Below are positions 3,638 to 19,028 of a DNA stretch of 64,000 bases, one piece after another. The position numbers and the translations under genes are program-made. The notes beneath the pieces are model-generated. The model saw only the letters and a program-made list of their open reading frames with translations. It searched no databases and was not told the DNA's origin. Every line of letters starts with the position of its first letter. Positions within the stretch are counted from its first letter, which is position 1. The stretch covers positions 7,853 to 71,852 of the forward strand of contig DBAY01000007.1 of the NCBI GenBank assembly GCA_002291925.1, read 5' to 3'. Origin of the DNA: Alphaproteobacteria bacterium UBA998 (GTDB lineage: Bacteria > Pseudomonadota > Alphaproteobacteria > Rickettsiales > UBA998).

Positions 3638-5188
3638 ATGGCACAAGATATCCGTTCGTTTGATGCGTCCGTCATTGACGAGGGAATGACACGCTATCGC
3701 GTCGAGCTGGCATCCCCTTCAGGACGTGAGTCACGTTTGGATATTCACGCCAGAACGCCCTTGCCTGAGGAAATCAGATTTGGAGAGCGTTCAAACATCC
3801 GTTTCACATTAGATGAAGATGGACACCGACTGAATCCGAACCAACGAGAAGAGGCCGCTCAGAGATTTCGGCAAGAAGCGGAAAAGCGTTTTCCCGAAGG
3901 AACCAGAATCACTGCGGAGCAAAATCAGATTGATGCCCGCCGTACCAATTTCGCCGTGGAATTCCCTGCCGGCCATACTCCTGACGCTGCCGATGTTCGG
4001 GCGGTGGTAGAGTCGGCGCATGGGGCAGGGATTGTTAGTGACGCAGGCCGTCTGGGGGCGATTGATCACGAATTGCGCCAAAACCCCCAACGCCTCTTTG
4101 CGCCGGGGCAAAACGGAGCCCGCCATTTGGCCCGGATTCAGGAGGGGGCAGGGGGTAACCAGCTTGTTTTCAATGCAGAACTCACGCGCCTTAGCCGTGG
4201 AACGGAGCTGGTTATTGAGCCTCGGCCGGATGGCTCGCACGTCATCCGTCCGGTCGAAGCGTCCCCCTCGATGAGTGGCATCCAATCGGCGGAGGAAATT
4301 CGCAATCACTTGAACGCTGCAGGTATTCGTACCGAAACTCCTTTTCCTGCGCCTGAAGGGGCGGATGTCACGACGCGTCTTGAACGCGGGCATGGGGTCG
4401 TCTCTGTGCCTCCGGGGGCCAGTTCTCAAGAGATCCTAGGCGCGATGGGCCGTCCACAAACCCTGCCCAATAAGACGGTGGTTAACCCGCCGATCATTGC
4501 CCCCGAGGCGGCACGCATCGCCGCAGAACAGCCGGGGTTTGGAACGCCAGACCTGCGCGGACATTCTGTGGCGGCTGAAGTTGGGGGGCGTGCCGCTGGC
4601 ACGGGAGCCCATGCGCCAACCCCTGAAGGACACGCGCCGCGCGGGCGACGCATAGGTGGCGGCGTGTTTGGCATCGCTCTAGGGGCAGGGATTGCCGGGG
4701 TGAGCCAATTCATCGCCACGGGTAGCGCACAGGCCGCTGTGACCGCCGCAAGGGATGCCGCCGGGGGTACAGTTGTTGACGGTGTGCGTGAGGGTAATTA
4801 CGGACGGGCAGCCCGTGACACCGTGGAATTACTGGATCCTACCGGTGTGGTGGGTGGCTTGCGAGCCATCCGTGAAAACAGGAATCCTGATTTGCAAATG
4901 GAGCATCAACAGGCCGCACGCGGCAATGTGGGGCGCCATATGGTGCGGCGAATCGAAGGGTTCGACGATCCGGCCCCCGGCGCGGCACCCGGATCGGCGC
5001 CGCCGCAAAATCGTACGCCTGAGGAGCCGGCGAGAGGGATGGACTCGAACGTCCTTGCCCAAGCCCAGAGTGCCGTAGCTGGAATGGAAACTCCGGTGGC
5101 CTGCCACGGAACGCCGGATGGTTCCCAGTTTTCCCCTGCGGCATGCCCACGCACGCTGGAGCCGGCCCAAAGTGTTGGGCGGGGCTAG
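3638..5188 (+). CDS. Orphan hypothetical protein with a Gly/Ala-rich hydrophobic segment
   Basis: AGGAG SD 8 nt upstream of the ATG at 3638. The 5' half is visibly lower in GC than its neighbours. One predicted TM-like stretch (GGGVFGIALGAGIAGVSQFIATG). No recognisable family motifs. Confidence 0.6.
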   Translation: MAQDIRSFDASVIDEGMTRYRVELASPSGRESRLDIHARTPLPEEIRFGERSNIRFTLDEDGHRLNPNQREEAAQRFRQEAEKRFPEGTRITAEQNQIDARRTNFAVEFPAGHTPDAADVRAVVESAHGAGIVSDAGRLGAIDHELRQNPQRLFAPGQNGARHLARIQEGAGGNQLVFNAELTRLSRGTELVIEPRPDGSHVIRPVEASPSMSGIQSAEEIRNHLNAAGIRTETPFPAPEGADVTTRLERGHGVVSVPPGASSQEILGAMGRPQTLPNKTVVNPPIIAPEAARIAAEQPGFGTPDLRGHSVAAEVGGRAAGTGAHAPTPEGHAPRGRRIGGGVFGIALGAGIAGVSQFIATGSAQAAVTAARDAAGGTVVDGVREGNYGRAARDTVELLDPTGVVGGLRAIRENRNPDLQMEHQQAARGNVGRHMVRRIEGFDDPAPGAAPGSAPPQNRTPEEPARGMDSNVLAQAQSAVAGMETPVACHGTPDGSQFSPAACPRTLEPAQSVGRG

Positions 5189-5242: not shown

Positions 5243-5319
5243 GATCCCGTAGCTCAGCTGGATAGAGCATCTGCCTTCTAAGCAGAATGTCGGGGGTTCG
5301 AGTCCCTCCGGGATCGCCA
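5243..5319 (+). tRNA. tRNA-Arg (anticodon TCT), CCA encoded
   Basis: Manual cloverleaf. Acceptor stem GATCCCG/CGGGATC. D arm GCTC-AGCTGGATA-GAGC. Anticodon stem TCTGC/GCAGA with loop CTTCTAA (TCT at 5277-5279). T arm GGGGG-TTCGAGT-CCCTC. Discriminator G, then CCA. Confidence 0.93.
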
Positions 5320-5380
5320 GACATGCTAGTCAGGTTTAATTCCGCAAAGAGCGAAGCCAGAGGCTTTTCGTCCGCGTGTG

Positions 5381-6496
5381 CTAGCGGACGGCGCGCTTGA
5401 GCAGACGCAGCGGGAATGACATCGGACGCGGCTGCTCCTGCGGTGGCACCTCTTTCACCGCCATGCGTGCCATCAGCTCCTGTTCGTTGCGCCATGCATT
5501 GATCTGTGCGGCAAAGGCCGCTTCATGCGCCCGCTGCTCGTGGCGGTAATCGCCCTCTTCGTTACGGAAGGCCATCGTCGGGTGATCGGCCGTCCAGGAG
5601 CGCGGCGTATTGCACATGAGCAGGGGCTGCCACCCCGCCGGAAGATGCCACGTGCCGCGGAACACGTAATCCCTGGCATTGGAGAGGTAGATTAGCCCGC
5701 CGATGACTGTCAGGCGGGCGAAGAGCGGGAGGTAGTAATCCACATGCTGCTGCTCCATCTCCTGCAGGCTTTCCACATTGATGGCGATGTCAAAGCTGCG
5801 ATCCGGCAGCGACGGCGTCTGCCAGGCGGGCATGATGTAGCAGTCGAACTCCTGGCTGTAGGTGTCGCCATTGTAGAAGGAGCCGATCTTCAGATCGGGA
5901 AATTGCTGGCGCATGTAGAGGAAGGCATACATCAGCGAGCCGGGCACGGCGTCCACCAGCACGTAATGCATCTTGCCGGGGACCATGCTGAGCATCGCCT
6001 CGGCCAGACGCCCGTAACCGCCGCCGACCTCGAAGACGCGCAGCCGCTCGCCGCTGGCCGGTGTGATGCGGTTGAAAGCCGTGATGAGCGCCACGTCCAT
6101 CAGGCTGCCAAGGTCGGTCTCACGCCAGCCGTATTTCTGGCCGTACGCGAGCAGATCCCCGGGAAGCTGCCGGTCATGATCCAGCGCCCGCAGGAAAGGC
6201 TCGTATTTGGTGACCGAATGGGCCTGAAGCGGCTGCATGCCGGTGACGCCGACCCACGGGTCGAGCATCAGCGCCAGGTTGCTGTATTTCTCCTTGTAGA
6301 GCGATTCCGTGTAGCTGCTGATGCGCGACTGACTCGGCGTCTTGCCAAGGTTCTGGTTCCAGTGGTCGGACGGCGCCAGGGCACCGCCATGCGCCAGCAT
6401 GTCGGCCACAATCGCGTCAAACATGGCCTTGTCACCCTGACGGGCAAAACGGCTGCTGCTGTTGTTGAACTGCAGGGGCGTCGAAGTGAAGGGCAC
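5381..6496 (-). CDS. Class I SAM-dependent methyltransferase, putative sugar O-methyltransferase type
   Basis: Motif I VFEVGGGYGRLAE. The overall layout resembles the putative sugar O-methyltransferases found in O-antigen clusters. Confidence 0.65.
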   Translation of the reverse strand: MPFTSTPLQFNNSSSRFARQGDKAMFDAIVADMLAHGGALAPSDHWNQNLGKTPSQSRISSYTESLYKEKYSNLALMLDPWVGVTGMQPLQAHSVTKYEPFLRALDHDRQLPGDLLAYGQKYGWRETDLGSLMDVALITAFNRITPASGERLRVFEVGGGYGRLAEAMLSMVPGKMHYVLVDAVPGSLMYAFLYMRQQFPDLKIGSFYNGDTYSQEFDCYIMPAWQTPSLPDRSFDIAINVESLQEMEQQHVDYYLPLFARLTVIGGLIYLSNARDYVFRGTWHLPAGWQPLLMCNTPRSWTADHPTMAFRNEEGDYRHEQRAHEAAFAAQINAWRNEQELMARMAVKEVPPQEQPRPMSFPLRLLKRAVR

Positions 6497-6664
6497 GGAA
6501 AACTCCTATCTTTCCTAAAACACGTTACGGTAAGGGGTACTGCTCTGCGGGACTCGGCGCAACCCCAGACTCGGTGTTGCGGGCACCAAAGCGCTTCAGC
6601 AAAGCGATGGAGGGCGTTCCGGCACGGAAGATGCACGCCCCGGTGCGATCTGGTGACGCGGCGT

Positions 6665-8146
6665 TCATGAGGTCATCACTTCGCGGCCGAACAGGTCGGG
6701 GTCGATGCTAATGCTGCCGTGAATGCCGAGATTCATCTGGTCGACGATCGGCCCGCATAGCATGTCCACGGCGACCCCCAGGGGCTGCACCATGCTCTGC
6801 CAGTAGCGGTAGATCATCTTCGGGTGTTCGCCCATCAGCACCGTCAGGCGGCTGCCTTGCGGCATGAAAATGGCGTTGGCGCAGGCCGCGCCGGTGGCGC
6901 TGATGACGTGCCTTGCATGGGTGAAATACTGCACCTGTTCGTGGAAGGAGAGCTTTTCCGGGTCCAGAATCGCATAGCCGGCCTCGCGGGCGATGCGCTC
7001 CAGCGTATCGTTATTGACGACACGGCGGATGCCCCTGCTGCGCCGCAGGTAAATGCGCTCTGGCCAGTCCCGTTGCGCGAGGTTGAACGCCTGTTTCATC
7101 AGGTGATCGCGCAGGAGGCGGAGCGCGTCGGGCGAGAATTTTCCGTGGGAATGCTGCTCGCCTTCCCCGCCCCGCTGATCGAACGGCACATAGCCGGTAG
7201 GGGTGGTGACATAAAGGCGATCCGCCCAGACCGTCCCAAAGGTGGGAAGCGTGTAAATCAGCCGGTCGCCGCAGACCAGAAAGAGCGAGTTCATCAAGTT
7301 TTCATGCAGCCCGCCATTCACGATGATGGGGACGCCACTGAAACGCGGCTCACGGCAGAACAGATGAATCCGTGGCAGCACCTCGCTCATCCAGTGGGCG
7401 TAATTTCCAGCGCAGCTATCGACAAAACTGGCGGCGACTGGAATGGAAGCCGGGGGAACTGTGTTAATCCGGCGGCGAATGGTGCCCCGACCGATATTCA
7501 GTAGCACCCGGCTATGTAACTCTTCCGAAGTGCGGTCTGTCTCAAATCGATACAGGTCATGATATAAAGCCTTCCCTTGAAGTAAGGCCACTTGCTTGGG
7601 CAGAAATACAAGATTGGTTGCCCCCTGTTGTACGGCGTCATGCGTTTCAAAAATTTTTACGGCTGGAAATAAGAAACTTTCTTCTTTTGTAAGGCGATGT
7701 GGGATTTTTCCTTGCAGGCCGATTACACGTAACGGCGGCAGGTAAACGACAGTCTCTGGCAGTGCGGTTTCACAGCACAAAGAAGGATATTCCGCTAAGT
7801 ATTCGTTATGCCGTGTAAGCTTTGCTGTAGATGTAAACAAAGGCTGCGGGAGTAGTCGAAAAATTAGCTGGCGAAATTTGTGCCAGTATTTTGGGGCGGC
7901 ATAGCGCACATGTCGGTGCAGAAACCTCCAGCCGTAAAGGCAGAGCCGGTGCAGGACTGGCACACGGCGGATCGTGCGCCGGTAGATTGAAAGCAGCCGG
8001 GGAAAATCGGAGATGTTGAGGGGTTTTCTCTCCAATCTCTTCGCCGCCTCGCAGAGCTCGATGATCCTCGGCGTCAGCGGCGGAGTGGCGGCCGATGGCG
8101 CCCCGCCCATGTCCTCCGCAGAGAGATGTGCGCTGTCCCGGGTCAT
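6665..8146 (-). CDS. Glycosyltransferase family 61 (DUF563)-like protein
   Basis: The C-terminal two thirds carry DUF563-like motifs (FVDSCAGNYAHWMSEVLPRI; LSFHEQVQYFTHARHVISATGAACANAIFM). The N-terminal ~215 aa are encoded by visibly lower-GC DNA. Confidence 0.65.
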   Translation of the reverse strand: MTRDSAHLSAEDMGGAPSAATPPLTPRIIELCEAAKRLERKPLNISDFPRLLSIYRRTIRRVPVLHRLCLYGWRFLHRHVRYAAPKYWHKFRQLIFRLLPQPLFTSTAKLTRHNEYLAEYPSLCCETALPETVVYLPPLRVIGLQGKIPHRLTKEESFLFPAVKIFETHDAVQQGATNLVFLPKQVALLQGKALYHDLYRFETDRTSEELHSRVLLNIGRGTIRRRINTVPPASIPVAASFVDSCAGNYAHWMSEVLPRIHLFCREPRFSGVPIIVNGGLHENLMNSLFLVCGDRLIYTLPTFGTVWADRLYVTTPTGYVPFDQRGGEGEQHSHGKFSPDALRLLRDHLMKQAFNLAQRDWPERIYLRRSRGIRRVVNNDTLERIAREAGYAILDPEKLSFHEQVQYFTHARHVISATGAACANAIFMPQGSRLTVLMGEHPKMIYRYWQSMVQPLGVAVDMLCGPIVDQMNLGIHGSISIDPDLFGREVMTS

Positions 8147-8397
8147 GAGATGAACGAATGGCGCGCGGCCTGGGCCGCCTGCTGCCGATTCATAAAGATG
8201 ACGTTGCTGTACAAATCCATCATAGGCGGCAAGTCAATAATATGGCAATCGTTCAAAGGCATGCCGCCATCCTTAGCCATTTTCAGGCAGAATACAAAGA
8301 AAACGTAGCAGTCCATACAGGATGGCGCAGCAATTGTCACGTTGCCATGAAACAAGCTGTTTGACTCGCTAGTGCAATACGATAACCTTGGTCAGTA

Positions 8398-9159
8398 ATG
8401 CCTGTTTCAACAAGGACGGTCATGCCGCTTTATCTCGAACGCACTTGCGCCTATATGCGCCGCCGTCTGGCGGAGGGAATCCGCGGCACGCTGGCCCAGC
8501 CTGCGGCCATGCTGCTGGCGCTCATCTTCACGCTGCTCTACCTGCCGCAGGCTTTTATCCTCATTGAGGACATGGGTTTAATCTCCGCCTTCGAGGTGGA
8601 TCCCGGTAGCCATATTCATGCCATGCGCGATGTGCTGGCGCATTACAGCATGCATGCCGGGTATCACAGCAAATATTATGGATGGACGTATTTTTTCATT
8701 CAATATGTGCTGCTGTCTCCTCTCTACCAGTTTAGTCAAGCATTCGGAGTGCCCGACGAAACAGCGATCTATTTTGGAATCCGTTTGATTCTTTTTGTGA
8801 TTGGCCTGGCGTCCACTCTTGCGTTCTACGCGCTTGTACATCGCCTTTTCAATCGCCAGACGCTTTCCCTGGCAGCAGGGGCAATGTATGCGCTCTCCCC
8901 GGTCACCGCGAAATTCTTTTACTTCATTCACCCGGAAACGACCGGAATTCTCTTTATATTTCTAAGTTTGCATGCCTTGCTTGATTTTCGCAGAAATCCT
9001 GGTGACGGGGTTATTTATACCGCCGGCGTATTCGCGCTTGTGCTGGCCTCTCTCAGCAAGCAGATTTACTTTCTTCTGGCCCTGCCGGTGATGTGGGTGT
9101 TCTTTCTGCATTTTGCCGAGTCGAGCGGCCGGGGCATCCTGAAAACCCTTTTTCAGTGA
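8398..9159 (+). CDS. GT-C fold (ArnT/PMT_2-like) membrane glycosyltransferase, N-terminal part
   Basis: A polytopic membrane protein. The first extracytoplasmic loop carries acidic residues (LIEDMGLISAFEVDPGSH), as in polyprenyl-phosphate-sugar dependent GT-C enzymes. It ends in TGA TGA. Confidence 0.6.
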   Translation: MPVSTRTVMPLYLERTCAYMRRRLAEGIRGTLAQPAAMLLALIFTLLYLPQAFILIEDMGLISAFEVDPGSHIHAMRDVLAHYSMHAGYHSKYYGWTYFFIQYVLLSPLYQFSQAFGVPDETAIYFGIRLILFVIGLASTLAFYALVHRLFNRQTLSLAAGAMYALSPVTAKFFYFIHPETTGILFIFLSLHALLDFRRNPGDGVIYTAGVFALVLASLSKQIYFLLALPVMWVFFLHFAESSGRGILKTLFQ

Positions 9160-10034
9160 TGATGGCACGAATGCTTGCGCTAACGGCGTTTGGCGCATTG
9201 GTCGTGTTTTTCATCATCCATCCGTCTGCGTTTATTCAGTTTCCGTTATTTCTTGAATACCAGTCCACTCTTGGGGGATTTGTGAATGGCGAGAATGCCA
9301 CTTCCCTGCAAAAGGCGCTCAGGCTGTGGAAGGAGGTGCTTGACGCGCATCCGGGAACGCTCATCCTGATGGCGCTGCTGATTCCGGGGATCATAGCGGG
9401 GTTTTGGTATTACCGCATTACGCGACGACCGGAAATGCTCTGGCTCGCAGTGAATGCGCTTTCAGCACTGCTACTGCTGGCGGTCATCATTACCATGAAC
9501 CGGTTGTTTATCATGGTAAGTTATCTTCAGCCGGTCTATCCCTTGCTCATTCTCAATTTCATCGCCCTGCTGGTATGGGCGCGAGATACGCAATGGCGCG
9601 GCGGGTGGGTGCTGCATGTCATAGGTATGTATCTTGGGGCAATACTGATTGGCGGCTTTATGCTCTATTCTGTTCAGGCGCTTTATGACCGATTGAATTA
9701 CAAGGATTCCATCGCATCGATCACGTACGAATATGTGCGCCAGAATGTGGGCGCGAACACGCGCGTGGTGCATGATCATTTCGTGGCGATACCTGAAGCC
9801 ATGAAGCTGCAGTCGTGCCACTATTGGCAGGGCTGCGGCACGGACGCAATTGAGGAGTTTGCGCCTGACGTACTGATGTTTAACCCGGAATTTCGCGTCT
9901 CTGAAAAGCCCTATGCCGAAACGGAGCGGCTGAAGCGCTATGTGCGCGAGCATGGCTTCATCCACGTCACCGATCTCAAGGCACAAAATGTCACCATTTC
10001 TGTCTATCGACGCCCTGAGAAGACAACACCGTAG
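9159..10034 (+). CDS. GT-C membrane glycosyltransferase, C-terminal part (more TM helices plus a soluble C-terminal domain)
   Basis: ATG at 9159 overlaps the upstream stop (TGATG). Several TM helices are followed by a ~110 aa soluble tail. The frame differs from 8398-9159. Confidence 0.55.
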   Translation: MMARMLALTAFGALVVFFIIHPSAFIQFPLFLEYQSTLGGFVNGENATSLQKALRLWKEVLDAHPGTLILMALLIPGIIAGFWYYRITRRPEMLWLAVNALSALLLLAVIITMNRLFIMVSYLQPVYPLLILNFIALLVWARDTQWRGGWVLHVIGMYLGAILIGGFMLYSVQALYDRLNYKDSIASITYEYVRQNVGANTRVVHDHFVAIPEAMKLQSCHYWQGCGTDAIEEFAPDVLMFNPEFRVSEKPYAETERLKRYVREHGFIHVTDLKAQNVTISVYRRPEKTTP

Positions 10035-10145
10035 TCATAATCTAGAGTAATGATCAACGTACAGTTTTTCTTGCGAAGTTGGAGCTGAGAAACTACGGTA
10101 GCGCCGTTTTTACCCACCCATCTGAACGATACGGAAAGACCAACC

Positions 10146-11372
10146 ATGCAGCCGAAAGTCGCTTACGCCAAAACCGTTTATGGCCAGAAGGAAATTGATG
10201 CCGTCGTCAAATGCCTGAACGAGAGCACGCAGATGGGCAAATATGCGAGCCAGTTCGAGGCGCGCATTGCCTCCCTCTTTGCCAAGAGGCACGGGCTGTT
10301 CGTCAATTCCGGTTCTTCGGCGCTCTATATCGGCATGGAAGCAATGGGCTTCACGCCGGGCGGAGAGGTCATCACTCCGGCGCTGACCTTCTCCACCACG
10401 GTGGGCTGCATCGTGAAATCAGGGCTGGTGCCCGTCTTCGTCGATGTCGGCGTCAGTGACTACTGCATCGATGTCAGCCGCATCGAGGAGATGGTGACGG
10501 ACAAGACGGTGGCCATCCTGGCTCCGAACCTGCTCGGCAATCTGTGCGAATGGGACAAGATCGCGGACATCGCCAAGCGCCATAACCTCAAGGTGATCGA
10601 GGATTCCGCTGATACGCTGGGCGCGACGCTGCACGGCAAGTCTAGCGGATACTGGAGCGACTGGTCGATCACCAGCTTCTACGGCTCGCACATCATCAAC
10701 TGCGCCGGCAATGGCGGCATGCTCTGCCTGAATGATCCGGATCAGCTGCGCGAGGCGAAGCTGCTGCGCTCCTGGGGCCGTTCCTCCTCGATCTTCGATG
10801 AGAAGAGCGAGGCGATTGAGAACCGGTTCAACGTGGATGTGGACGGGATTGAGTACGACGCGAAATTCATTTTCGAGCGCATCGGCTACAATTTGGAGGG
10901 CTCGGAGATCGGCGCTGCGTTCGGGCTCGCCCAGCTTGAGGATCTCGAGCAGAATATCCGCACCCGCGAGGCCAATTACGCCCGCCAGACGCGCTTCTTC
11001 CAGCAATATGAGGAATTCTTCGTGCTGCCGCAGCAGACCGAAGGAACCCGTACCGCCTGGCTCGCCTATCCGGTCGTCATCCGCCCGGATGCGCCCTTCA
11101 AGCGCCGCGAACTCCAGATTGCGCTGGAGAAACAGGCGGTGCAGACCCGCACGGTGTTCTCGGGCAACATCACCCGCCAGCCCGGCTACCGGAACCTGCC
11201 GATGCGCATCTCGCCGCAGGGGCTGGCCAACGCGGACAATATCATGCGCGGCGGCGTCCTGCTGGCCTGCCACCACGGCCTGACCGAGGAGATGTTCACC
11301 TACATGCACGGGCATATCGAGGAGTTCCTGCGGCCGTATCTGGCGCAGGGCCGTGTCTCCAAGGCGGTGTAA
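10146..11372 (+). CDS. DegT/DnrJ/EryC1-family PMP-dependent sugar 3-dehydratase (RfbH/E1/ColD-like)
   Basis: DegT fold motifs are present. The usual Schiff-base lysine position reads SFYGSHIINCAGNGG, with His instead of Lys. This is the hallmark of E1/ColD/SpnQ-type dehydratases. Confidence 0.75.
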   Translation: MQPKVAYAKTVYGQKEIDAVVKCLNESTQMGKYASQFEARIASLFAKRHGLFVNSGSSALYIGMEAMGFTPGGEVITPALTFSTTVGCIVKSGLVPVFVDVGVSDYCIDVSRIEEMVTDKTVAILAPNLLGNLCEWDKIADIAKRHNLKVIEDSADTLGATLHGKSSGYWSDWSITSFYGSHIINCAGNGGMLCLNDPDQLREAKLLRSWGRSSSIFDEKSEAIENRFNVDVDGIEYDAKFIFERIGYNLEGSEIGAAFGLAQLEDLEQNIRTREANYARQTRFFQQYEEFFVLPQQTEGTRTAWLAYPVVIRPDAPFKRRELQIALEKQAVQTRTVFSGNITRQPGYRNLPMRISPQGLANADNIMRGGVLLACHHGLTEEMFTYMHGHIEEFLRPYLAQGRVSKAV

Positions 11373-11378
11373 TCGCGC

Positions 11379-12326
11379 ATGGCGGCGAAGAAGCTGATCT
11401 CCATTGTCATCCCGGCCTATAACGAGGAGGCCTGCACCGCCCCGCTTGAGCGCGGCATCAGCGGCATCATCGACAGCCTGCCGCAGTATGATTTCGAGGT
11501 GATCATCGTCGAGAACGGCTCGTATGACCGCACCTACGAGCAGCTGATGGAAATCCACCAGCGCGATGGCCGTTACAAGATCGTCAAGCTGACCCGCAAT
11601 GTCGGCCCGGAAAACGCCATCTGTGCCGGCCTGCAGTTCGCGCGCGGGGATGCGGCCATCATCACCTATGCCGACCTCGAAGACCCGCCCCACCTGATGC
11701 GCGACTTCATCGCCAAATGGGAGGAGGGCTACAAGCATGTATACGGCATCACGCGGCAGCGGCAGGGCAGCCGCCTGCGGCGCTTCAATTCCCAGCTTTT
11801 CTATACCATCATCAACCGGCTGACCAATAACGTGGTGCCGAAGAATGTAGCGGATTTCCGGCTGGTCGACCGGCAGGTCTACCAGGAGATCAACCGCATC
11901 ACCGAGAAGAACCGCTTCCTGCGGGGCCTGTTCGCGTGGCTGAACTATAAATCCTTCGGCATCGAATATGACCGCAACACCACGCGGGCGGGCGGCGAAT
12001 CGAAAGCCTCGACGCTGGTGGTGCTGGCGCTGGCGCTCAAGGCCATTTTCTCCTACTCGAATTTTCCCCTCAAGATCGCCAGTATTCTGGGTTGCGTCAC
12101 CGGGGGGCTCTCGCTGCTCGCCATCGTCTATTTCATCGTGCAGTATCTCTTCTTCGATACGTTTCCCTTCAGCGGGTTTGGCACCATCGTGGTGCTGATG
12201 CTGCTGATGTTCAGCATCCTCTTCTTCCTGATCGGGATTCTGGGTGAATATGTGGCGCTGATTTACAGCGAGGTGAAGGGGCGCCCGCTCTTCGTGGTGG
12301 ATGAGCTGGTCGGGATCCGTCCGTGA
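11379..12326 (+). CDS. GT2 polyprenyl-phosphate glycosyltransferase (GtrB/ArnC-like)
   Basis: SIVIPAYNEE, IIVENGSYDRT and YADLEDPP motifs, plus two C-terminal TM helices, as in GtrB/ArnC. Confidence 0.85.
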   Translation: MAAKKLISIVIPAYNEEACTAPLERGISGIIDSLPQYDFEVIIVENGSYDRTYEQLMEIHQRDGRYKIVKLTRNVGPENAICAGLQFARGDAAIITYADLEDPPHLMRDFIAKWEEGYKHVYGITRQRQGSRLRRFNSQLFYTIINRLTNNVVPKNVADFRLVDRQVYQEINRITEKNRFLRGLFAWLNYKSFGIEYDRNTTRAGGESKASTLVVLALALKAIFSYSNFPLKIASILGCVTGGLSLLAIVYFIVQYLFFDTFPFSGFGTIVVLMLLMFSILFFLIGILGEYVALIYSEVKGRPLFVVDELVGIRP

Positions 12327-12757
12327 CGACGGACGAGGCCGCGGGAATACGCTTCTGGCCGCTGGCAGTTTTTTTCCGCCTGCCGCAGCCGCTGCGCTAT
12401 CTGCTGATCGGTGGCTATAACACGGTCATGAGCGGCGCGCTCTATGCCGGGCTCTACCTGTTGCTCGGCGAGAAGCTGCATTACCTCCTGATCCTGGTGC
12501 TGAATTACCTGATCTCGGTTACCCATTCCTTCCTGACGATGAAGTACCTCGTTTTTCGCAGCCGCGGCCATGTCTGGCGGGAGTATCTGCGCTGCCAGCT
12601 TTCCTACCTAACGCTGCTCGGAGCCAATATTCCGTTGCTCAGCCTGCTGGTGGACGGTCTGGGTATGGGCGCCATTCTTGCCCAGTTTATCTGCACCGTG
12701 GTCATCGCGGCGCTGGGCTACGTCCTGCACAAGCGCTTCTCCTTCGCGGCGCGGTAG
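12323..12757 (+). CDS. GtrA-family small membrane protein
   Basis: 144 aa with four TM helices. Motifs YLLIGGYNTVMSGALY and HKRFSF are typical of GtrA. The GTG start overlaps the upstream stop (GTGA). Confidence 0.8.
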   Translation: MTTDEAAGIRFWPLAVFFRLPQPLRYLLIGGYNTVMSGALYAGLYLLLGEKLHYLLILVLNYLISVTHSFLTMKYLVFRSRGHVWREYLRCQLSYLTLLGANIPLLSLLVDGLGMGAILAQFICTVVIAALGYVLHKRFSFAAR

Positions 12758-12784
12758 CGACGCTCGGCAGAGTCTTCCGGTATT

Positions 12785-14557
12785 TCAGGCGGCGGCTGGC
12801 CGGGTCTTGCGCTGATGGTCGGCCACGAAGGGGTTGTCGGCGATGAATTCGCTATCGCTCAGATAGGGGAACTGGTCATGCAGCGGATTGCCCAGCTCCA
12901 GTTTCGGCTCCAGCACCGTATTCGGGTGGATGATCACGTCGATGAGCCGCGCGCCGCCGCTGAAGGGGGAGGCGGCGATGTCCTCCAGCTGCTCCACGCG
13001 CTGATAGCCGATGCCGTAAGCCTCGGCCAGTTTGCTGAAATCCGGGCAGCTATAGCCGTGGCCGGTCGCGGCATAGCGCCCGGCGAAGTTGAGGTCCTGA
13101 AACTGCTTGATGATGCCATAGCCGCCGTTATTCATCACGATGATGGTGATCGGCAGCCCGTGCTCGCGGATGACTTGCAGCTCTTGAATGTTGAGTTGCA
13201 TCCCGCCATCGCCGATGACAGCGATCACCTGCCGGCCCGGCTGCACGAGCGCCGCGCCGATGGCCGCCGGCAGCGCATAGCCCATCGGCGAGTTGCCCCC
13301 GGCGGTGAATATGGCCTGACGGCGGCGCAGGAAGGTCTGGAAAAGCCAGCACATGGCGGCGCCGGTATCGCCGATGACCACGGCATCCTCCGTGACATAC
13401 TCGCTGAGACGCTCGATGACGGCGTAGGGCGAGAGCGTGCCGCTGCGCTCGGCGAACTGGCTGTGCGTTTTGCCAAAATAGCGCGCGTGCATCTGCCCCA
13501 CATAGCTGCGCCACGCGGGTGACTGCACCGGCGCGGGCACCTGATCCAGCACGCTCCCGAACCCGGCGAAATTCGCCTGGATCGTCCGGTATTCGTTGAT
13601 GGCGTATTTCCGCAGCTCCTCGCCGTCCACGTCAATCGCCAGCACTTCGGCGCTGATGGCGAACAGCTTGGTGTTGGAGCCGCGCTGGCGGTTATCGAGC
13701 CGGCTGCCGAGGACGAGCAGGCGATCACAATTCTGCACGAGGCAGTTTGCACCGCGATTGCCATAGACACCGATGGTGCCGTGATAATTCGGCGAGTAAT
13801 TGTCGAAATAGCGCATGCCGTTCCAGCTAGCGACAAACGAGATGCCGTGGCGGTTCAGGAAGGCCTCGACGGCGGCCGCTTCCTGCGCCCCCGCCAAGCC
13901 CGGCCCGGCACCGAAAATGGCCAGCGGCCGCTCACCGCCGCGGAAGAACTCGGAGATGCGCTGCGCGATGGCGGTATCTTCCGACGCGCTGCGCGAAGAG
14001 ACGGCGGGCGGTGCATATTGCAGGACGCTGCCCATATCTTCCTGCTGCACATTCATCGGCACGTCGATCAGCACCGGACCCTTGCGGTCGCTGATAGCGA
14101 TGTTCCATGCCTTCTCCAGCTCGCGGCGCAGTTCCTCGCCGCTGGTCACCTGCACGGCGTATTTAGTGATCGGGCGGACCATGTCGACGATCTTGGTTTC
14201 CTGGAACCCGGCCTGCCGGACATCCGCGCCGAGATATTGCGCGCTCTCCCGCAGGTTGATCTGCCCGGTGATGTGAATGGAGGGGATGGAGTCGAAATAG
14301 GAGCAGGCGATGCCGGTGATGAGATTGGTGGCGCCGGGCCCGGACGTCGCGACCGTCACCCCCGGAATGCCGGTGGTGCGCCAGACGGCATCCGCCGCCA
14401 TCGCCGCGCCCTGCTCATGGTGAAAGCAGGTATAGCCCAGCTGCGGGTGGCGTTCGATGGCATCAATGATGAAGGCGCAGGCCCCGCCCGTCATCAGGAA
14501 GACATTGGAGACGCCGCGCTGATGCAGGAACTCCGCAATGTATTCCGAGCCGTTCAT
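12785..14557 (-). CDS. Thiamine-diphosphate enzyme of the acetolactate-synthase large-subunit family (YerE-like candidate)
   Basis: Start taken at MNGSEYIAEFL (ATG 14557). The N-terminal ThDP pyrimidine domain has HEQGAAMAADA and TSGPGATNL. The ThDP motif is GDGGMQLNIQELQVIREHGLPITIIVMNNGGYG. Confidence 0.85.
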   Translation of the reverse strand: MNGSEYIAEFLHQRGVSNVFLMTGGACAFIIDAIERHPQLGYTCFHHEQGAAMAADAVWRTTGIPGVTVATSGPGATNLITGIACSYFDSIPSIHITGQINLRESAQYLGADVRQAGFQETKIVDMVRPITKYAVQVTSGEELRRELEKAWNIAISDRKGPVLIDVPMNVQQEDMGSVLQYAPPAVSSRSASEDTAIAQRISEFFRGGERPLAIFGAGPGLAGAQEAAAVEAFLNRHGISFVASWNGMRYFDNYSPNYHGTIGVYGNRGANCLVQNCDRLLVLGSRLDNRQRGSNTKLFAISAEVLAIDVDGEELRKYAINEYRTIQANFAGFGSVLDQVPAPVQSPAWRSYVGQMHARYFGKTHSQFAERSGTLSPYAVIERLSEYVTEDAVVIGDTGAAMCWLFQTFLRRRQAIFTAGGNSPMGYALPAAIGAALVQPGRQVIAVIGDGGMQLNIQELQVIREHGLPITIIVMNNGGYGIIKQFQDLNFAGRYAATGHGYSCPDFSKLAEAYGIGYQRVEQLEDIAASPFSGGARLIDVIIHPNTVLEPKLELGNPLHDQFPYLSDSEFIADNPFVADHQRKTRPAAA

Positions 14558-14558
14558 C

Positions 14559-16406
14559 TCAGAACGCGCGCCGCATGGTGACGTCGTAGGCAGCAGCGGG
14601 CTCATATTCGGAAGCCACGATCTCCTGATAGAAGCTCTGCCCGGCTTCGGAGACGCGGCGCATCGGAACGCGCAGGATCTCGCTGAAGCCCAGCGCCTCA
14701 TACAGGCGCACGGCCGGGGTGTTATGGCCGAGGACGCGCAGATACATGTGCGCCAGGTCGAACTCCTGTTTCGCCCAGTCGATCAGCGCCGTGCAGGCAG
14801 CCTGCATGATGCCCTTCTCCGCGCCTGCTACGCCGCGCACGATGTTGTCGAGCTCGCAGAAGCGTTGCTGGTGATTGAAGCGGAAGAGGCCGACATGGCC
14901 GATTTTCTCGCCCTTCGCATTCTCCACGAAGAAGAGGAGGCGGTCCGGCACCTCGAACAGGGCCTTGTCCATCCAGCGCTGCGTCCCTTCCTCGGTCACA
15001 GTGAACTGCGAGGGGAACCATTCCTGCGCGTTGCGACGCCAGTCGGCCAGCAGCTTCACCAGCTCCGGCCGGGAGGAATCCTGTTGCGTGACCGGCACGA
15101 GGCGGCCCTTCTGGCCCTGCGCGCCATAGGTGAAGGCCAGCGACGGGTTTTCCTCGCCGGTCTTGATGCGGCGCAGCGTGGCGGTGGTCCGCTCGCGGCG
15201 GGCGAGCCAGCCGCCGACCGGGATGGAGGCGCTGCCGCCGCGCGTGCGCGCCAGGATATCGCGCACATGGCCGCAGATATAGTCGATTTCCTCCTCGGTG
15301 CGGTTATGGCCGCTGGGCAGGTTGATGCCGCGCAGCCCGACATGGTACGCGGTCGGGTTGGCGGCCTGGGTGAACATCGGGAAGGCGCTGATCGGGTAGA
15401 AGATCGGCCGGGAGTCGACCTTGCGTTGCTTCAGCTCAGCGATGAAGGCGTCACGCTCTAGCGGCACCTTGTCCGAGAGGACGATGGAGCTCATCCAGTA
15501 GATGTTCTTGGCCCACGGCTTCTGGCCGTTGATGCTGATCTCCGGGATGTCCTGCAACCGCTCCTGGTACCATTTGAAGATCTGGATGCGGCGCTCGACA
15601 ATCTCCTCGGCCCGTTCGATCTGGGCGAGGCCGATGGCCGCCTGCACGTTCGACATCTTGTATTTGAAGCCGATCGACTCGTTGAAGAGGACCTTTGTCT
15701 TGCTGCGGCCATGGTCGCCGATGATGCGGGCGCGGTCCATCAACTCGGCGTCCGACGTGACGAGCATGCCGCCCTCGCCGGTCACCACCGCCTTGGCGCC
15801 CTGGAAGCTGAAGGCCGCGGCATTGCCGATCGAGCCGGTCTTGCGGCCGTAATATTCCGCGCCGATGGCCTGCGCCGAATCCTCGAAGACGAAGAGGTTA
15901 TGCTTGCGGGCCAGCTCCAGCAGCGGGTTCATGTCGCAGGGATGGCCGTAGAGATGCACCGGCATGATGGCCTTGGTGCGCGGGGTAATGAGCCGCTCCA
16001 CGCTTTCGGGCAGCATGGTCCAGGATTCCGGGTCAATGTCGCAGAAGACCGGGGTGGCGCCGGTGTAGACGACCGCCGAGGCGGTGGCGATCCAGGTCAG
16101 CTCCGGCACGATGACCTCGTCGCCCTCGCCGATGCCGGCGGCCAGCAGTGCCAGATGCATGGCGCCGGTGCAGCTGGAGGTGGCCATGGCATGGCTGGTG
16201 CCGACATAGCCGGCAAAGGTCTTCTCGAATTTCGCGAGATATTCTCCCCATTTATCGTTCCAGCCATTCTTCACGGCATCGACGCCGTAAGCCACTTCGC
16301 GGGTGGAAATGGTCGGCCCGGCGGTCAGGATGAGCTGGGAGATGGTGCGCGGCGCCTCTTCCACGTCGGAGGAGAGGGTCGGCTTTTCAGCGAGCGAGGG
16401 GGTCAT
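14559..16406 (-). CDS. Fusion protein: DegT-family sugar aminotransferase (N) plus GNAT N-acetyltransferase (C)
   Basis: The aminotransferase part retains the catalytic lysine (FSFQGAKAVVTGEGG). The C-terminal ~170 aa have a GNAT core (IGHVGLFRF...GIMQAACTALIDWA...LRVLGHNTPAVRLYEALGF). Confidence 0.85.
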   Translation of the reverse strand: MTPSLAEKPTLSSDVEEAPRTISQLILTAGPTISTREVAYGVDAVKNGWNDKWGEYLAKFEKTFAGYVGTSHAMATSSCTGAMHLALLAAGIGEGDEVIVPELTWIATASAVVYTGATPVFCDIDPESWTMLPESVERLITPRTKAIMPVHLYGHPCDMNPLLELARKHNLFVFEDSAQAIGAEYYGRKTGSIGNAAAFSFQGAKAVVTGEGGMLVTSDAELMDRARIIGDHGRSKTKVLFNESIGFKYKMSNVQAAIGLAQIERAEEIVERRIQIFKWYQERLQDIPEISINGQKPWAKNIYWMSSIVLSDKVPLERDAFIAELKQRKVDSRPIFYPISAFPMFTQAANPTAYHVGLRGINLPSGHNRTEEEIDYICGHVRDILARTRGGSASIPVGGWLARRERTTATLRRIKTGEENPSLAFTYGAQGQKGRLVPVTQQDSSRPELVKLLADWRRNAQEWFPSQFTVTEEGTQRWMDKALFEVPDRLLFFVENAKGEKIGHVGLFRFNHQQRFCELDNIVRGVAGAEKGIMQAACTALIDWAKQEFDLAHMYLRVLGHNTPAVRLYEALGFSEILRVPMRRVSEAGQSFYQEIVASEYEPAAAYDVTMRRAF

Positions 16407-16506
16407 GGGTGCAGAAACTTCTCTAATGACAACATGTTGGAAAAACCATATCTACGCCTTGCTTCCAGCCCTGTCAAAGGGATTCCTGACGCCCATCCAC
16501 GGCGTA

Positions 16507-17577
16507 TCAGAGACCGGCCAGATCGAGGTATTGCGTGATCTGGCGCAGGGTGACGGCGTGCATGTCGGCCTTGGCGAAATACTCGCCGAACCAGTCCGCC
16601 GTCAGCTGGATGGCTTCTTCCTGCGTATAGCGCGGGCGCCAGCCGATGGCATGCTTGATCTGGCTGTTATCGAGCCGCAGCGTCAGGGTTTCATGCAGGC
16701 GGTCATCGCGTTCGATGCGGTACTCGCCGCGTCCGAGCGTGGTGATGAATATTTGTGTCAGCGCCTCAACGGTGATCGGATGCACGTCATCCGGGCCGAA
16801 ATTGAAGGCGGTGGCAAAGCGGGCACCTTCCGTGTGCAGCCATGCCGCCAGCATCAGATAGCCGGCGACCACCTCGATGACATGCTGCCAGGGACGAATG
16901 GCGTCCGGTGAGCGAAGCGTCACCGTTTGCCCGCGCATGACGCTCTCGACGATGTCGGGAATCAGGCGGTCCTGCGAGAAATCGCCGCCTCCGATGACGT
17001 TGCCCGCGCGCGCCGAAGCCAGATGAATTCCGGCCTCCGCGAAAAAGGAGCGCCGGTAGGAGGTGGTGATAAGCTCCGCACAGGCCTTGGAGGCGGAGTA
17101 GGGGTCATGGCCGCCCAGCCGGTCGTTCTCGCGATAGGGCCAGACCCATTCGGCGTTCTCGTAGCATTTGTCGGTCGTGATATTGAGCACGGTACGGCAG
17201 CTGTTCTGGCGCCGGATCGCCTCGAACAGATGGACCGTGCCGAGAATATTGGTCTGCCACGTTTCCAGCGGGTCGCGGTAGGAGGCGCGCACCAGCGGTT
17301 GCGCGGCCATATGGATGATGATGTCCGGGCGGGCGGCGGCCATCGCGGCTTCCAGCGCCACGGCGTCGCGGATATCGCCGTAGGTGGAGCGGGTGATGCG
17401 GTCACCGATGGACAGCTGCTCGAACAGGTTGCCGCGAAGATTCACCGGCGGCAGGGCGAATCCGTACACTTCCGCGCCGAGATGCGCCAGAAGCAGCGCC
17501 ATCCAGCTCCCCTTGAAGCCGGTATGGCCGGTGAGGAAAATCCGTTTTCCGGCGTAGAAATCCGCAAGGCGCGTCAT
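16507..17577 (-). CDS. rfbG: CDP-glucose 4,6-dehydratase
   Basis: GKRIFLTGHTGFKGSWMALLL Rossmann motif and YSASK catalytic motif. 356 aa. The ATGA overlap with rfbF suggests translational coupling. Confidence 0.9.
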   Translation of the reverse strand: MTRLADFYAGKRIFLTGHTGFKGSWMALLLAHLGAEVYGFALPPVNLRGNLFEQLSIGDRITRSTYGDIRDAVALEAAMAAARPDIIIHMAAQPLVRASYRDPLETWQTNILGTVHLFEAIRRQNSCRTVLNITTDKCYENAEWVWPYRENDRLGGHDPYSASKACAELITTSYRRSFFAEAGIHLASARAGNVIGGGDFSQDRLIPDIVESVMRGQTVTLRSPDAIRPWQHVIEVVAGYLMLAAWLHTEGARFATAFNFGPDDVHPITVEALTQIFITTLGRGEYRIERDDRLHETLTLRLDNSQIKHAIGWRPRYTQEEAIQLTADWFGEYFAKADMHAVTLRQITQYLDLAGL

Positions 17578-18368
17578 AGGCAGATGTTTCCGTTATCCTG
17601 CCAGAGCTTCCATGGGGCGCCTTCCTCCCACAGCTTCATGAGGTAGTTCTTGTCGCGCAGCGTATCCATCGGCTGCCAGAAGCCGGAATGCCGGTAGGCC
17701 ACGAGTTGCCCTTCCCGCGCCAGGTTTTCCAGCGGTTCGCGCTCGAGAACGGTTTGCGACGAGTCGATATACCCAAGCGCCTTGCGGTTCATCACGAAGA
17801 AGCCGCCATTGATGTAGGATCCGTCGCCCTGCGGCTTTTCAATGAAGGAGCTGACCTGACCGCTCTCGCTGAGTTCGAGCGCGCCGAAGCGGCCGGACGG
17901 CTTGACGGCGGTGACGGTCGCCAGCTTGCCGTGCGCCAGGTGGAAATCGACGAGGCGGCGGATGTCGATGTCGGCCACCCCGTCGCCGTAGGTGAGGCAG
18001 AAATGCTCATCCTCTTCGAGGAAGCGGCCGATGGCTTTGACGCGGCCGCCGGTCATGGTGTTTTCGCCCGTCTCGACCAGCGTCACGCGCCAGGGCTCGC
18101 TGCGCGTATCGTGGAAATGCTCGGCGTTGGTGCGCATGTCGTAAGTGATGTCCGACATGTGCCGGAAGTAGTTGGCGAAATACTCCTTGATGTAATAGCC
18201 GCGATAGCCGAGGCAGATGATGAAATCATGAAAGCCGTAATGTGAATAAATTTTCATGATATGCCAAAGGATGGGCTTGCCGCCGATCTCGATCATTGGC
18301 TTGGGCTTGAGGTCCGTCTCCTCTGAAATCCGGCTGCCGAAACCGCCCGCCAGCAATACCACTTTCAT
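17574..18368 (-). CDS. rfbF: Glucose-1-phosphate cytidylyltransferase
   Basis: MKVVLLAGGFGSRISEETDLKPKPMIEIGGKPILWHIMKIYSHYGFHDFIICLGYRG is near-canonical RfbF. ATG at 18368 is preferred over the GTG at 18377. Confidence 0.9.
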   Translation of the reverse strand: MKVVLLAGGFGSRISEETDLKPKPMIEIGGKPILWHIMKIYSHYGFHDFIICLGYRGYYIKEYFANYFRHMSDITYDMRTNAEHFHDTRSEPWRVTLVETGENTMTGGRVKAIGRFLEEDEHFCLTYGDGVADIDIRRLVDFHLAHGKLATVTAVKPSGRFGALELSESGQVSSFIEKPQGDGSYINGGFFVMNRKALGYIDSSQTVLEREPLENLAREGQLVAYRHSGFWQPMDTLRDKNYLMKLWEEGAPWKLWQDNGNICL

Positions 18369-18626
18369 ATGCTTCACCCGTCGCTGCTACGTAAATCCTT
18401 TGTGCCGACAGTTATAGGAAGGATGGCGTGGCCTTGTCCAGCGGGCATATTAAGACGTCTCATGTGAAGAAGAAAGCGAAGTATCGCCTATGATTCATGG
18501 TCTTGGCGAAAGCAGGCGAGCGCTTTCCAGACGGAATGTCGGGGGGAATCTCTCTTGGAATGCCCTTGGATGTACAGATATTCTTGAAGCAGTATGTCGT
18601 GCAAACGCAGCATGAAATCGACGGAG

Positions 18627-19028
18627 TCAACGTGGAAGCCCGGCCGCTGCTGCCAGCGCCACGACCTCATCCTCCGGCGATTTCGCGCCGCTGACGCCGA
18701 TCGCGCCGACGCACTGGCCTTGATACATCAGCGGAATGCCGCCCTGCACGGGCAGGCGGTCCGGGAAAGTGAGGGTGCCGGGGCGCTCCTTGGCGACGTC
18801 TTCCAGTATTTTGGTGGATGTTCGGGTGAGGGCGGAGGTGCGTGCCTTGCGGATGGCGACGTCCGGGCTTTGCGGCACGGCGCCGTCCATGCGCTCCAGA
18901 TGCATCAGCAGCCCGGACTCGTCCACCACGGCGATGGTGATGCGCCAGCCCTGCTTCTCCGATTCGGCCTTGCCGGCGGCGACCACGGTGCGTGCTTCTT
19001 CAGCGCTCAAGATGGGACGGGTCAGCAT
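18627..19028 (-). CDS. GlcG/HbpS-like (DUF336) heme-binding family protein
   Basis: 133 aa with the C-terminal GGIPL...CVGAIGVSGAKSPEDEVVA motif characteristic of DUF336. Confidence 0.8.
   Translation of the reverse strand: MLTRPILSAEEARTVVAAGKAESEKQGWRITIAVVDESGLLMHLERMDGAVPQSPDVAIRKARTSALTRTSTKILEDVAKERPGTLTFPDRLPVQGGIPLMYQGQCVGAIGVSGAKSPEDEVVALAAAAGLPR

Follow-up and report, generated by a model that had tools for sequence, protein, structure and literature searches.

The 64-kb stretch of contig DBAY01000007.1 of Alphaproteobacteria bacterium UBA998 analyzed here (the window) carries, directly behind a tRNA-Arg gene, a cassette of genes that is likely to be a self-contained system for periplasmic glycan decoration, with a donor sugar built on cytidine diphosphate (CDP) rather than on uridine diphosphate (UDP). 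Between positions 5381 and 18377 we found 11 open reading frames (ORFs) representing 10 genes, each of at least 140 amino acids (aa) and with coding-type G+C content at third codon positions (GC3), all glycan-related and arranged in three operons. Operon 1 (8146 to 5381, minus strand) encodes a GT61-family glycosyltransferase and a NanM-like sugar O-methyltransferase; operon 2 (8398 to 12757, plus strand) a GT-C glycosyltransferase in two pieces, an RfbH-like dehydratase, a GtrB-like glycosyltransferase of family GT2 and GtrA; and operon 3 (18377 to 12785, minus strand) RfbF, RfbG, a fusion of an aminotransferase with a GNAT N-acetyltransferase (AT-GNAT) and an enzyme dependent on thiamine diphosphate (ThDP). 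An initial annotation of this DNA had counted 13 consecutive genes, a number reached only by including the two small ORFs (46 and 57 aa) that the Joint Genome Institute (JGI) calls inside the divergent intergenic region between the first two operons (8147–8397). Its assignment of each gene to a family agreed with our domain assignments, which were made with Pfam and NCBIfam models, and our Pfam scan of the window, including its approximately 40 further ORFs, likewise detected no Wzx, Wzy, Wzz, ABC exporter or initiating transferase.

In the pathway that we propose, RfbF would form CDP-glucose and RfbG CDP-4-keto-6-deoxyglucose, both by family-level assignment. An E1-like enzyme dependent on pyridoxamine 5'-phosphate (PMP) would take off the 3-hydroxyl to give CDP-3,6-dideoxy-4-ketoglucose, probably in a ColD-like manner, the enamine being hydrolyzed and glutamate serving to regenerate PMP; a YerE-like ThDP enzyme would put a two-carbon acyl branch from pyruvate on C4; and the AT-GNAT protein, present instead of the YerF ketoreductase, would aminate and N-acetylate the side-chain carbonyl. 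The predicted product is a 4-C-(1-acetamidoethyl)-3,6-dideoxyhexose, which may also be O-methylated. The GtrB-like enzyme would move this sugar from CDP onto undecaprenyl phosphate (UndP), GtrA would help to flip the lipid-linked sugar across the membrane, and a GT-C transferase of a small unnamed family would join it to a periplasmic acceptor, most likely the O-polysaccharide or another part of the lipopolysaccharide (LPS), encoded elsewhere in the genome.

Periplasmic three-component glycosylation is the route by which many bacteria alter their serotype, phage sensitivity and antibiotic resistance, and the donors established so far all derive, to our knowledge, from UDP-sugars, guanosine diphosphate (GDP) sugars or phosphoribosyl pyrophosphate. 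What is new here is a clade of polyprenyl-phosphate glycosyltransferases with non-canonical motifs, a cluster-free 3-dehydratase in a CDP context and a small unnamed GT-C family; a new acetamido-branched sugar is a probable added feature. More tentatively, with somewhat less than even confidence, we propose as one joint reading that the cassette represents a widespread three-component class delivering CDP-derived, C4-branched 3,6-dideoxyhexoses to surface glycans via UndP. The sugars would be the yersiniose, erwiniose and caryophyllose family together with a new acetamido-branched member; the polyprenyl-phosphate glycosyltransferases would be CDP-specific, lacking the first Asp of the DXD motif and using an Asn as the cytosine determinant; and the dehydratase would be of a fourth type, combining a CDP substrate with ColD-like, cluster-free chemistry.

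Association of the Gtr-like genes with a CDP-sugar pathway

The GtrB/ArnC-type polyprenyl-phosphate glycosyltransferase (11379–12326, plus strand, 315 aa) fell into a distinct clade with the motifs ENGS and YAD. The nearest NCBIfam models, PgfS and ArnC, both scored under their cut-offs, and residues 7–313 aligned with residues 28–332 of Synechocystis GtrB (5ekp) at 228 bits, transmembrane hairpin included, as compared with 113–123 bits for ArnC. At the position preceding G-S (D48 in ArnC), GtrB has NDGS, ArnC DDGS and the window protein ENGS, and Asn occupied this position in all of the 120 top homologues. The DXD motif is DAD in GtrB and ArnC and YAD in the window protein; the first Asp (GtrB D94, ArnC D100) occurred in none of the same 120 homologues, which mostly have T, Y, C or S. 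The second Asp is retained. The clade also preserves the counterparts of D96, D99 and D157 of GtrB, the basic residues aligned with its UndP-binding R125 and K132, and the transmembrane hairpin. Asn at the D48 position was shared by three other groups of polyprenyl-phosphate GT2 enzymes, which are encoded beside CDP genes and only 28–34% identical to the window protein (DNNS in loci L028 and L029, DNCS in L003 and L004, DNAS in L009; L numbers denote related loci and P numbers individual related proteins), whereas Asp was found there in 29 of the 29 controls with a recognizable motif. Recent structural papers describe the first DXD Asp as conserved throughout the family and likely to be the catalytic base, and place ArnC D48 among the residues contacting the substrate. 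The gene context and the Asn at the D48 position suggest a CDP donor for the GtrB-like enzyme, and from base chemistry we infer that this Asn would read cytosine rather than uracil. If so, a sequence signature would become available for predicting the donor nucleotide of polyprenyl-phosphate glycosyltransferases, the clade would provide natural variants for testing whether the first DXD Asp acts in catalysis as proposed, and the model in which this residue is the catalytic base of GtrB and ArnC would not be general. The gene that follows encodes a GtrA-family small membrane protein, a candidate flippase (12323–12757, plus strand, 144 aa; PF04138, 66 bits, cut-off 26).

The linkage of the Gtr-like and CDP-sugar genes was surveyed in loci found by three routes, namely through the dehydratase (L001–L018), through GtrB homologues (L021–L026) and through distant GT-C homologues (L028 and L029). 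Among the loci found through the dehydratase, the gene set recurred in differing orders in L001 and L002 (alphaproteobacterial metagenome-assembled genomes, MAGs), L005, L012 (Flavobacteriales) and L018 (Rhizobiaceae); in L005, a Pseudomonadota MAG, the eight core genes all run collinearly on the same strand. In many phyla, the dehydratase gene and gtrB are immediate neighbors. Among the loci found through GtrB, rfbF, rfbG, a DegT-type dehydratase gene and a ThDP or transketolase-like gene lay near the GtrB-like gene in L021, L022, L023 and L024 (97, 68, 63 and 57% identity to the window protein, respectively) and in L026 of the cultured Sulfuriferula multivorans (52%); the sixth of them, L025 (53%), is taken up below. 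L028 and L029 carry rfbF, rfbG, an E1-type dehydratase gene, a GT2 gene, a reductase gene and a ThDP enzyme gene alongside the GT-C homologue, and these modules are embedded in ABC-transporter O-polysaccharide-type clusters with rml genes, Fdt genes and GT61. Hosts of the paired modules thus include Alpha- and Gammaproteobacteria, Flavobacteriales and the cultured Sulfuriferula, among others. As a control we used GT2 relatives 22–40% identical, taken from a metagenome scan with the alignment of the GtrB clade and lying mostly on short contigs. In a comparison limited to loci found through GtrB and flanked by 6 kb or more, CDP genes were nearby in 5 of 6 loci of the xNGS clade and in 1 of 29 loci of canonical xDGS GT2 enzymes (Fisher p = 1e-4). 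The joining of Gtr-like and CDP genes described in the initial annotation was thus upheld by this survey, in which the two modules did not segregate independently. Their co-occurrence across phyla and through rearrangements of gene order, unlike that of canonical GtrB-like genes, suggested that the modules are functionally coupled.

Three-component systems of the Gtr and Arn types have been reviewed (PMC11127046). With the Gtr systems for O-antigen glucosylation in Shigella and Salmonella phages, the cassette shares a GT2 enzyme with a C-terminal transmembrane hairpin, GtrA and a variable GT-C; like GtrC, the GT-C of the window is the part most divergent between close relatives. Other loci have unrelated polytopic membrane proteins where the window has its GT-C family, in keeping with the Gtr paradigm, in which GtrA and GtrB are conserved and the third component varies. 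In contrast to Gtr systems, the window cassette brings its own CDP-based nucleotide-sugar pathway, its GtrB-like protein departs from the GtrB prototype in lacking the first DXD Asp and in having ENGS for NDGS, and no phage context was found around it. A scan of IMG/VR viral contigs detected no member of the GtrB clade (best match 31% identity), so a phage-borne origin like that of the classic gtr operons is unsupported. With the Arn system (ArnA–F and ArnT), which adds aminoarabinose to lipid A, the cassette shares a dedicated tailoring pathway with a DegT aminotransferase and an N-acyl step, as well as a co-encoded polyprenyl-phosphate glycosyltransferase (ArnC in Arn), a small flippase and a GT-C; it starts from CDP-glucose whereas Arn starts from UDP-glucuronate. 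Loci L003 and L004 use a half-size EamA protein resembling ArnE/F. They constitute a variant module, without GtrA and without a ThDP enzyme, in which rfbF, rfbG and the dehydratase gene are followed by genes for the half-size EamA (113 aa), a reductase and a polyprenyl-phosphate GT2 with the motifs DNCS and DVD (11254–13430 in L003).

Full-text literature searches combining GtrB, three-component or GT-C with CDP-sugar returned no description of such a system. The initial annotation had called the arrangement undescribed; this held for a biochemical description in the searched literature and was slightly too strong in view of work on mycobacterial lipooligosaccharides (LOS), whose authors reasoned, as a hypothesis, that extracellular transferases use polyprenol-linked donors. 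In Mycobacterium marinum, WcaA/MMAR_2333, a GT2 enzyme resembling DPM synthase, is required to add the CDP-derived branched sugar caryophyllose. By description, that LOS cluster (MMAR_2332, ThDP; MMAR_2333, GT2) shares with ours a CDP-derived C4-branched sugar and a GT2 enzyme, but the mycobacterial proposal mentions neither GtrA nor a GT-C as a partner, the organisms differ, and the acceptor there is an acyltrehalose glycolipid. The erwiniose of Pectobacterium occupies the terminal position of a side chain, which is compatible with late addition in the periplasm. If our proposal is correct, it would explain the route by which terminal residues such as erwiniose and caryophyllose are attached.

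The GT-C transferase and its frameshift

In the window the GT-C transferase is encoded by two ORFs on the plus strand, in different frames and joined at TGATG. The N-terminal fragment (8398–9159, 253 aa; PF13231, PMT_2, 32 bits) carries AFEVDPGS in its first loop, HPETTG and SLSKQ; the C-terminal fragment (9159–10034, 291 aa), whose ATG overlaps the upstream stop codon, carries CHYWQGCGTD and had no Pfam match. The window reads CTTTTTCAG at this point, and CTTTTTTCAG would restore the frame, giving in alignment a collinear protein of the same length as its relatives. This repair, together with the K-T-L-F-S of the intact relatives, indicated that one T was lost from a run of six, leaving the T5 run at 9149–9153 (plus strand). 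The "split GT-C" of the initial annotation therefore stands as two ORFs and as a GT-C enzyme by the fold of a relative, and is to be understood as a single frameshifted gene.

The closest intact relatives are P0121 (77% identity, in L138) and P0122 (71%, in L021). A word-indexed search of 5.8 billion proteins returned 30 relatives, all but two of them single proteins of 506–571 aa; the two shorter entries look like contig fragments, and every full-length relative among the matches listed was a single ORF. When 1.84 billion cluster representatives were searched with a profile, 580 relatives were returned, showing that the family is small and largely unannotated. Its motifs are A(F/Y)E(V/T)DPGS in the first loop, HPE(T/S)TG, SLSKQ and CHYWQGCGTD. 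For P0121, an AlphaFold model based on the alignment of the family had a predicted local distance difference test (pLDDT) score of 89.5 and a predicted template modelling (pTM) score of 0.90. In a Foldseek search against the PDB, its best 23 matches were all GT-C enzymes using polyprenyl-phosphate-linked donors, with template modelling (TM) scores of approximately 0.45–0.49; among them were ALG12, ArnT, DPY19, STT3/PglB/AglB, ALG9, AftA and PimE. The likeness to ArnT (TM approximately 0.47) is at the level of the fold only. The family thus shows the GT-C fold and an acidic E-x-D motif in the first loop, and the copy in the window is split by a 1-nt deletion. In the model, CHYWQGCGTD lies in a C-terminal alpha/beta domain that we assume to be periplasmic. 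Fusions of GT-C to GT2 were sought among the relatives, and only TPR or unannotated extensions were found: the distant members P0198 and P0259 have TPR repeats at the C terminus, like GT-C enzymes that glycosylate proteins, and P0157, P0160 and P0246, also distant, have N-terminal extensions of 180–275 aa without a Pfam match.

We considered two other explanations of the break. A sequencing error appeared unlikely, as a JGI metagenome contig of 100 kb includes the window and a 15-kb stretch from a second sample is 100% identical, unless the two assemblies have a homopolymer bias in common. The T run was also considered as a site of programmed frameshifting, which was set aside, since by eye there is no canonical X XXY YYZ heptamer. 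With its GT-C gene frameshifted, the last glycosylation step may be inactive in this organism; alternatively, it may be performed by two coupled half-proteins or be switchable. It is accordingly plausible, although we lean against it, that the cassette is real in its relatives and here a decaying pseudogene, in which the frameshift abolishes the periplasmic step so that no decoration takes place. The one-T deletion relative to intact homologues, the single ORFs of all full-length homologues listed, and the absence, on inspection of the sequence, of a Shine-Dalgarno motif before the internal ATG of the C-terminal ORF are in line with decay. On the other hand, both halves are otherwise intact and of coding-type composition, the overlap of stop and start codons in TGATG permits translational coupling, no other gene of the cassette is broken, the break maps to a short interhelical loop in the P0121 model, and a homopolymer tract could revert. 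Frameshifts and fragments were also seen in related loci. L027 has its GT-C homologue among fragmented DegT and epimerase ORFs, and in L001 the methyltransferase (2964–4085) and rfbG (12395–13464) genes are apparently frameshifted; assembly errors or decaying copies may account for both cases.

The CDP-sugar enzymes, the predicted donor and its acceptor

The glucose-1-phosphate cytidylyltransferase RfbF/DdhA (17574–18377, minus strand; TIGR02623, 419 bits, cut-off 300) and the CDP-glucose 4,6-dehydratase RfbG/DdhB (16507–17577, minus strand; TIGR02622, 452 bits, cut-off 278) both scored above the curated equivalog cut-offs; the RfbF start called by JGI lies 9 nt further in and gives 264 aa. 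The next enzyme, an E1/RfbH-like PMP-dependent 3-dehydratase of the DegT family (10146–11372, plus strand, 408 aa), had RfbH as its best NCBIfam model (310 bits, under the cut-off of 423) and Yersinia E1 (3bcx) as its best PDB match (214 bits, against 133 bits for ColD). Its SFYGSHIIN aligns with SFYPAHHIT of E1, the first His corresponding to H220 of E1, the hallmark of PMP-dependent 3-dehydratases. Where E1 has the stretch DCYCAPGCDNTC, with its [2Fe-2S] cysteines, the window protein reads SSSIFDE-KSEAIENRF, and dehydratases of this class in 15 related loci (16 sequences in all), whose carriers span several phyla, show the same replacement; the dehydratases of L026, L028 and L029 (437–440 aa) retain the Cys motif of E1. 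The RfbH/E1-like assignment of the initial annotation was thus right as regards the best model and the catalytic His, but the enzyme is not a canonical E1. An E3-like set of reductase domains was not found among the approximately 50 ORFs of the window that were scanned.

A 2022 review recognizes three characterized types of 3-dehydratase: E1 (CDP substrate, with a cluster, requiring E3), ColD (GDP substrate, no cluster, glutamate-dependent) and SpnQ (deoxythymidine diphosphate substrate, with a cluster). Against these types, the window dehydratase is an undescribed combination. It shares with ColD, the GDP-4-keto-6-deoxymannose 3-dehydratase, the catalytic His and the lack of an iron-sulfur cluster, and differs from it in being nearer to E1 and in its CDP context. 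As there is neither an iron-sulfur site nor an E3 gene, ColD-like chemistry on a CDP-sugar is probable. The cluster-free dehydratases of L003–L014 and L022–L024 are 75–82% identical to that of the window across phyla (Margulisiibacteriota, Pseudobdellovibrionaceae, Rickettsiales, Flavobacteriales and Gammaproteobacteria), and the adjacent RfbF and RfbG are approximately 45–63% identical; the high conservation of that one gene may be due to strong constraint or to its having spread horizontally in recent times.

The ThDP-dependent carboligase (12785–14557, minus strand, 590 aa from Met49 of a long ORF) has the N, M and C domains of TPP_enzyme. Its best PDB matches were 5ahk (305 bits) and 8rph (272 bits), which we take to be the YerE-like PpYerE and JanthE; true acetolactate synthases scored lower. 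The context of CDP-3,6-dideoxy-4-ketohexose genes fits the YerE-like class, to which the enzyme was provisionally assigned from its PDB matches and this context. Structures of PpYerE and JanthE exist, and YerE-like lyases attach acyl branches to CDP-3,6-dideoxy-4-ketoglucose (PMC12247030). In L022 (15647–17345) and L023 (15950–16801), the ThDP step is represented by a split transketolase-like pair or by a ThDP enzyme followed by a ketopantoate hydroxymethyltransferase-like gene, which suggests further kinds of branch chemistry.

The AT-GNAT fusion (14559–16406, minus strand, 615 aa) combines a sugar aminotransferase domain (PF01041, 386 bits) with Acetyltransf_3 and Acetyltransf_1 matches; the aminotransferase domain has perosamine synthetase 3bn1 as its best PDB match (319 bits) and retains the catalytic Lys. 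Loci with AT-GNAT and no reductase (the window, L001, L002, L005 and L021) were distinct from those with a YerF-like reductase and no AT-GNAT (L009, L022–L026, L028 and L029). From this mutual exclusion we propose that AT-GNAT replaces ketoreduction of the side chain, suggesting an acetamido-branched sugar. It is unlikely, though well worth weighing, that the sugar is instead a 4-acetamido-(3,)4,6-deoxyhexose, formed when AT-GNAT acts at ring C4 of CDP-4-keto-(3,)6-deoxyglucose, and that the ThDP enzyme serves a parallel branch or another role. The aminotransferase domain is indeed nearest to perosamine synthetase and to C4 aminotransferases of the LegC/PseC type. However, the ThDP and AT-GNAT genes are adjacent and conserved together in the window and in L001, L002, L005 and L021, and the exclusion between AT-GNAT and YerF-type proteins fits replacement of a side-chain step better than competition for the C4 ketone.

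With the pathways of yersiniose and erwiniose (DdhA–D with YerE/YerF; ErwE/F/I/J), the proposed route to an acetamido-branched sugar shares RfbF, RfbG, a 3-dehydratase and a YerE-like ThDP enzyme, and the trio of aldolase, acetaldehyde dehydrogenase and ThDP enzyme of the erwiniose cluster also occurs in L024 and L025. It differs from them in that the dehydratase lacks the [2Fe-2S] site, the E3 (DdhD) gene is missing, AT-GNAT takes the place of YerF, and delivery is predicted to proceed via a lipid carrier and not by a Leloir transferase. A cluster-free CDP-sugar 3-dehydratase and the AT-GNAT step, if confirmed in function, would extend the deoxysugar toolbox, probably by one new sugar.

Regarding the acceptor, we consider it improbable that the sugar is transferred to a protein, by O-glycosylation like that of PMT enzymes, or to another periplasmic molecule in place of LPS. 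The Pfam match of the GT-C is to PMT_2, TPR repeats occur on distant family members and the window lacks LPS genes; yet the GT-C homologues of L028 and L029 lie within the O-polysaccharide-type clusters with ABC transporters, rml and Fdt genes, and the known branched 3,6-dideoxy sugars are components of LPS, exopolysaccharide or LOS.

Several observations weigh against the proposal of a CDP-based decoration system. The loci L001–L018 are biased toward CDP genes, having been found through the dehydratase, and L025, although it encodes a ThDP enzyme and an aldolase, has neither rfbF nor rfbG within 10 kb. The nucleotide specificity of the GtrB-like enzyme is deduced from gene context and two motif positions only, and the window ThDP enzyme is just 29–34% identical to those of E1-type loci. 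Since the aminotransferase domain is nearest to C4 ring aminotransferases, a reaction at a side-chain ketone would be chemically novel. Finally, the GT-C frameshift is present in all samples that cover the site.

Least probable of the alternatives is that the two modules are co-localized without being coupled, the GtrB-like enzyme using a UDP-sugar, the CDP-sugar being consumed in the cytoplasm by GT61 or another Leloir transferase, and the genes adjoining merely because surface-glycan genes tend to cluster. GT61 in the window, L028, L029 and L138, the absence of rfbF and rfbG near the GtrB homologue of L025, and yersiniose in Yersinia, assumed to be attached by conventional transferases, would agree with this explanation, but L001, L002, L005, L018, L021–L024 and L026 pair GtrB with CDP genes without GT61, the core module in GT61-free loci includes no Leloir transferase, the dehydratase gene adjoins gtrB directly in many phyla, canonical GtrB-like genes lay near CDP genes in only 1 of 29 loci, and the donor-site motifs of the clade are altered.

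Boundaries, composition and surroundings of the cassette

The tRNA-Arg gene with anticodon TCT (5243–5319, plus strand), which the initial annotation had placed just before the glycan genes, was identified by ARAGORN as the sole tRNA gene within the 64-kb window and forms the left boundary of the cassette. In L001, a segment collinear with 10146–18453 of the window has 87.5% nucleotide identity, and its flanks are unrelated; L001 has no GT61, and its GT-C is just 55–62% identical. In L021, the cassette is flanked by a GGDEF/EAL gene on one side and a P-type ATPase gene on the other, and its proteins are mostly 92–97% identical to those of the window, although the C-terminal half of the GT-C is just 63% identical. 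L138 has the arrangement of methyltransferase, GT61 and GT-C seen in the window, with an intact GT-C. The occurrence of the cassette in three chromosomal contexts (the window, L001 and L021) indicated that it moves between contexts.

Evidence for insertion at the tRNA gene itself was weaker. The 12-mer GAATGTCGGGGG of the tRNA recurs once in the window, at 18534 in direct orientation, approximately 80 bp past the end of the L001 homology; it belongs to a direct partial repeat of tRNA-Arg positions 5273–5296 at 18522–18545 (plus strand, 12 nt exact). This repeat is possibly the decayed remnant of an attachment site marking the right end, but its significance is weak, and its local alignment score of 24 was equalled at an unrelated place in the window. 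No integrase was found, and a search for an empty site by way of the flanking HbpS-like protein yielded none, all three samples carrying the island. Of the tRNA-flanked island suggested by the initial annotation, the adjacency to the tRNA and the other contexts in relatives were substantiated, so that its island nature is supported in part.

The lower-GC part that the initial annotation had noticed was evident, with a GC content of 0.52–0.55 over approximately 7000–10500 as compared with 0.62–0.65 elsewhere. The atypical composition was restricted to the GT61 and GT-C genes, whose GC3 is 0.61–0.68 against 0.80–0.88 for the remaining genes of the island. GT61 and GT-C make up an exchangeable, lower-GC part of the cassette, which probably sets acceptor specificity. 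The GT61 enzyme (6665–8146, minus strand, 493 aa; PF04577, 85 bits; GC3 0.68) is accessory, being missing from L001 and L021 and present in L138 and in the O-polysaccharide-type loci L028 and L029. Also accessory is the putative NanM-like O-methyltransferase (5381–6496, minus strand, 371 aa; TIGR04371, 95 bits, cut-off 44), with 73% identity in L001 and 90% in L021 and missing from more distant loci. The tight coupling of genes was as described in the initial annotation, with GTGA at 12323–12326, ATGA at 17574–17577, TGATG at 9157–9161 and a 1-nt gap at 14558.

The approximately 40 ORFs in the rest of the window are non-glycan and mainly housekeeping genes (among them PanE, BamE, RNase D, AspRS, SecA, ArgJ, aspartokinase, PtsP, IspG, HisRS, RF1 and PrmC). 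Directly 5' of the tRNA gene lies a 517-aa ORF (3635–5188, plus strand) with a GC content of 0.555–0.56 and no Pfam or NCBIfam match. Just past the right end of the cassette, beside an HbpS/GlcG-like gene, there are several small uncharacterized ORFs (18594–19600) and a gene for an RTX calcium-binding repeat protein (19610–20338, minus strand). Further along, the segment 33247–35369 (plus strand) encodes a LuxR-type autoinducer-binding regulator and, after it, a zeta-toxin/AAA_33-like protein; as both genes have a low GC3 (0.55–0.63), the pair may be a second foreign segment.

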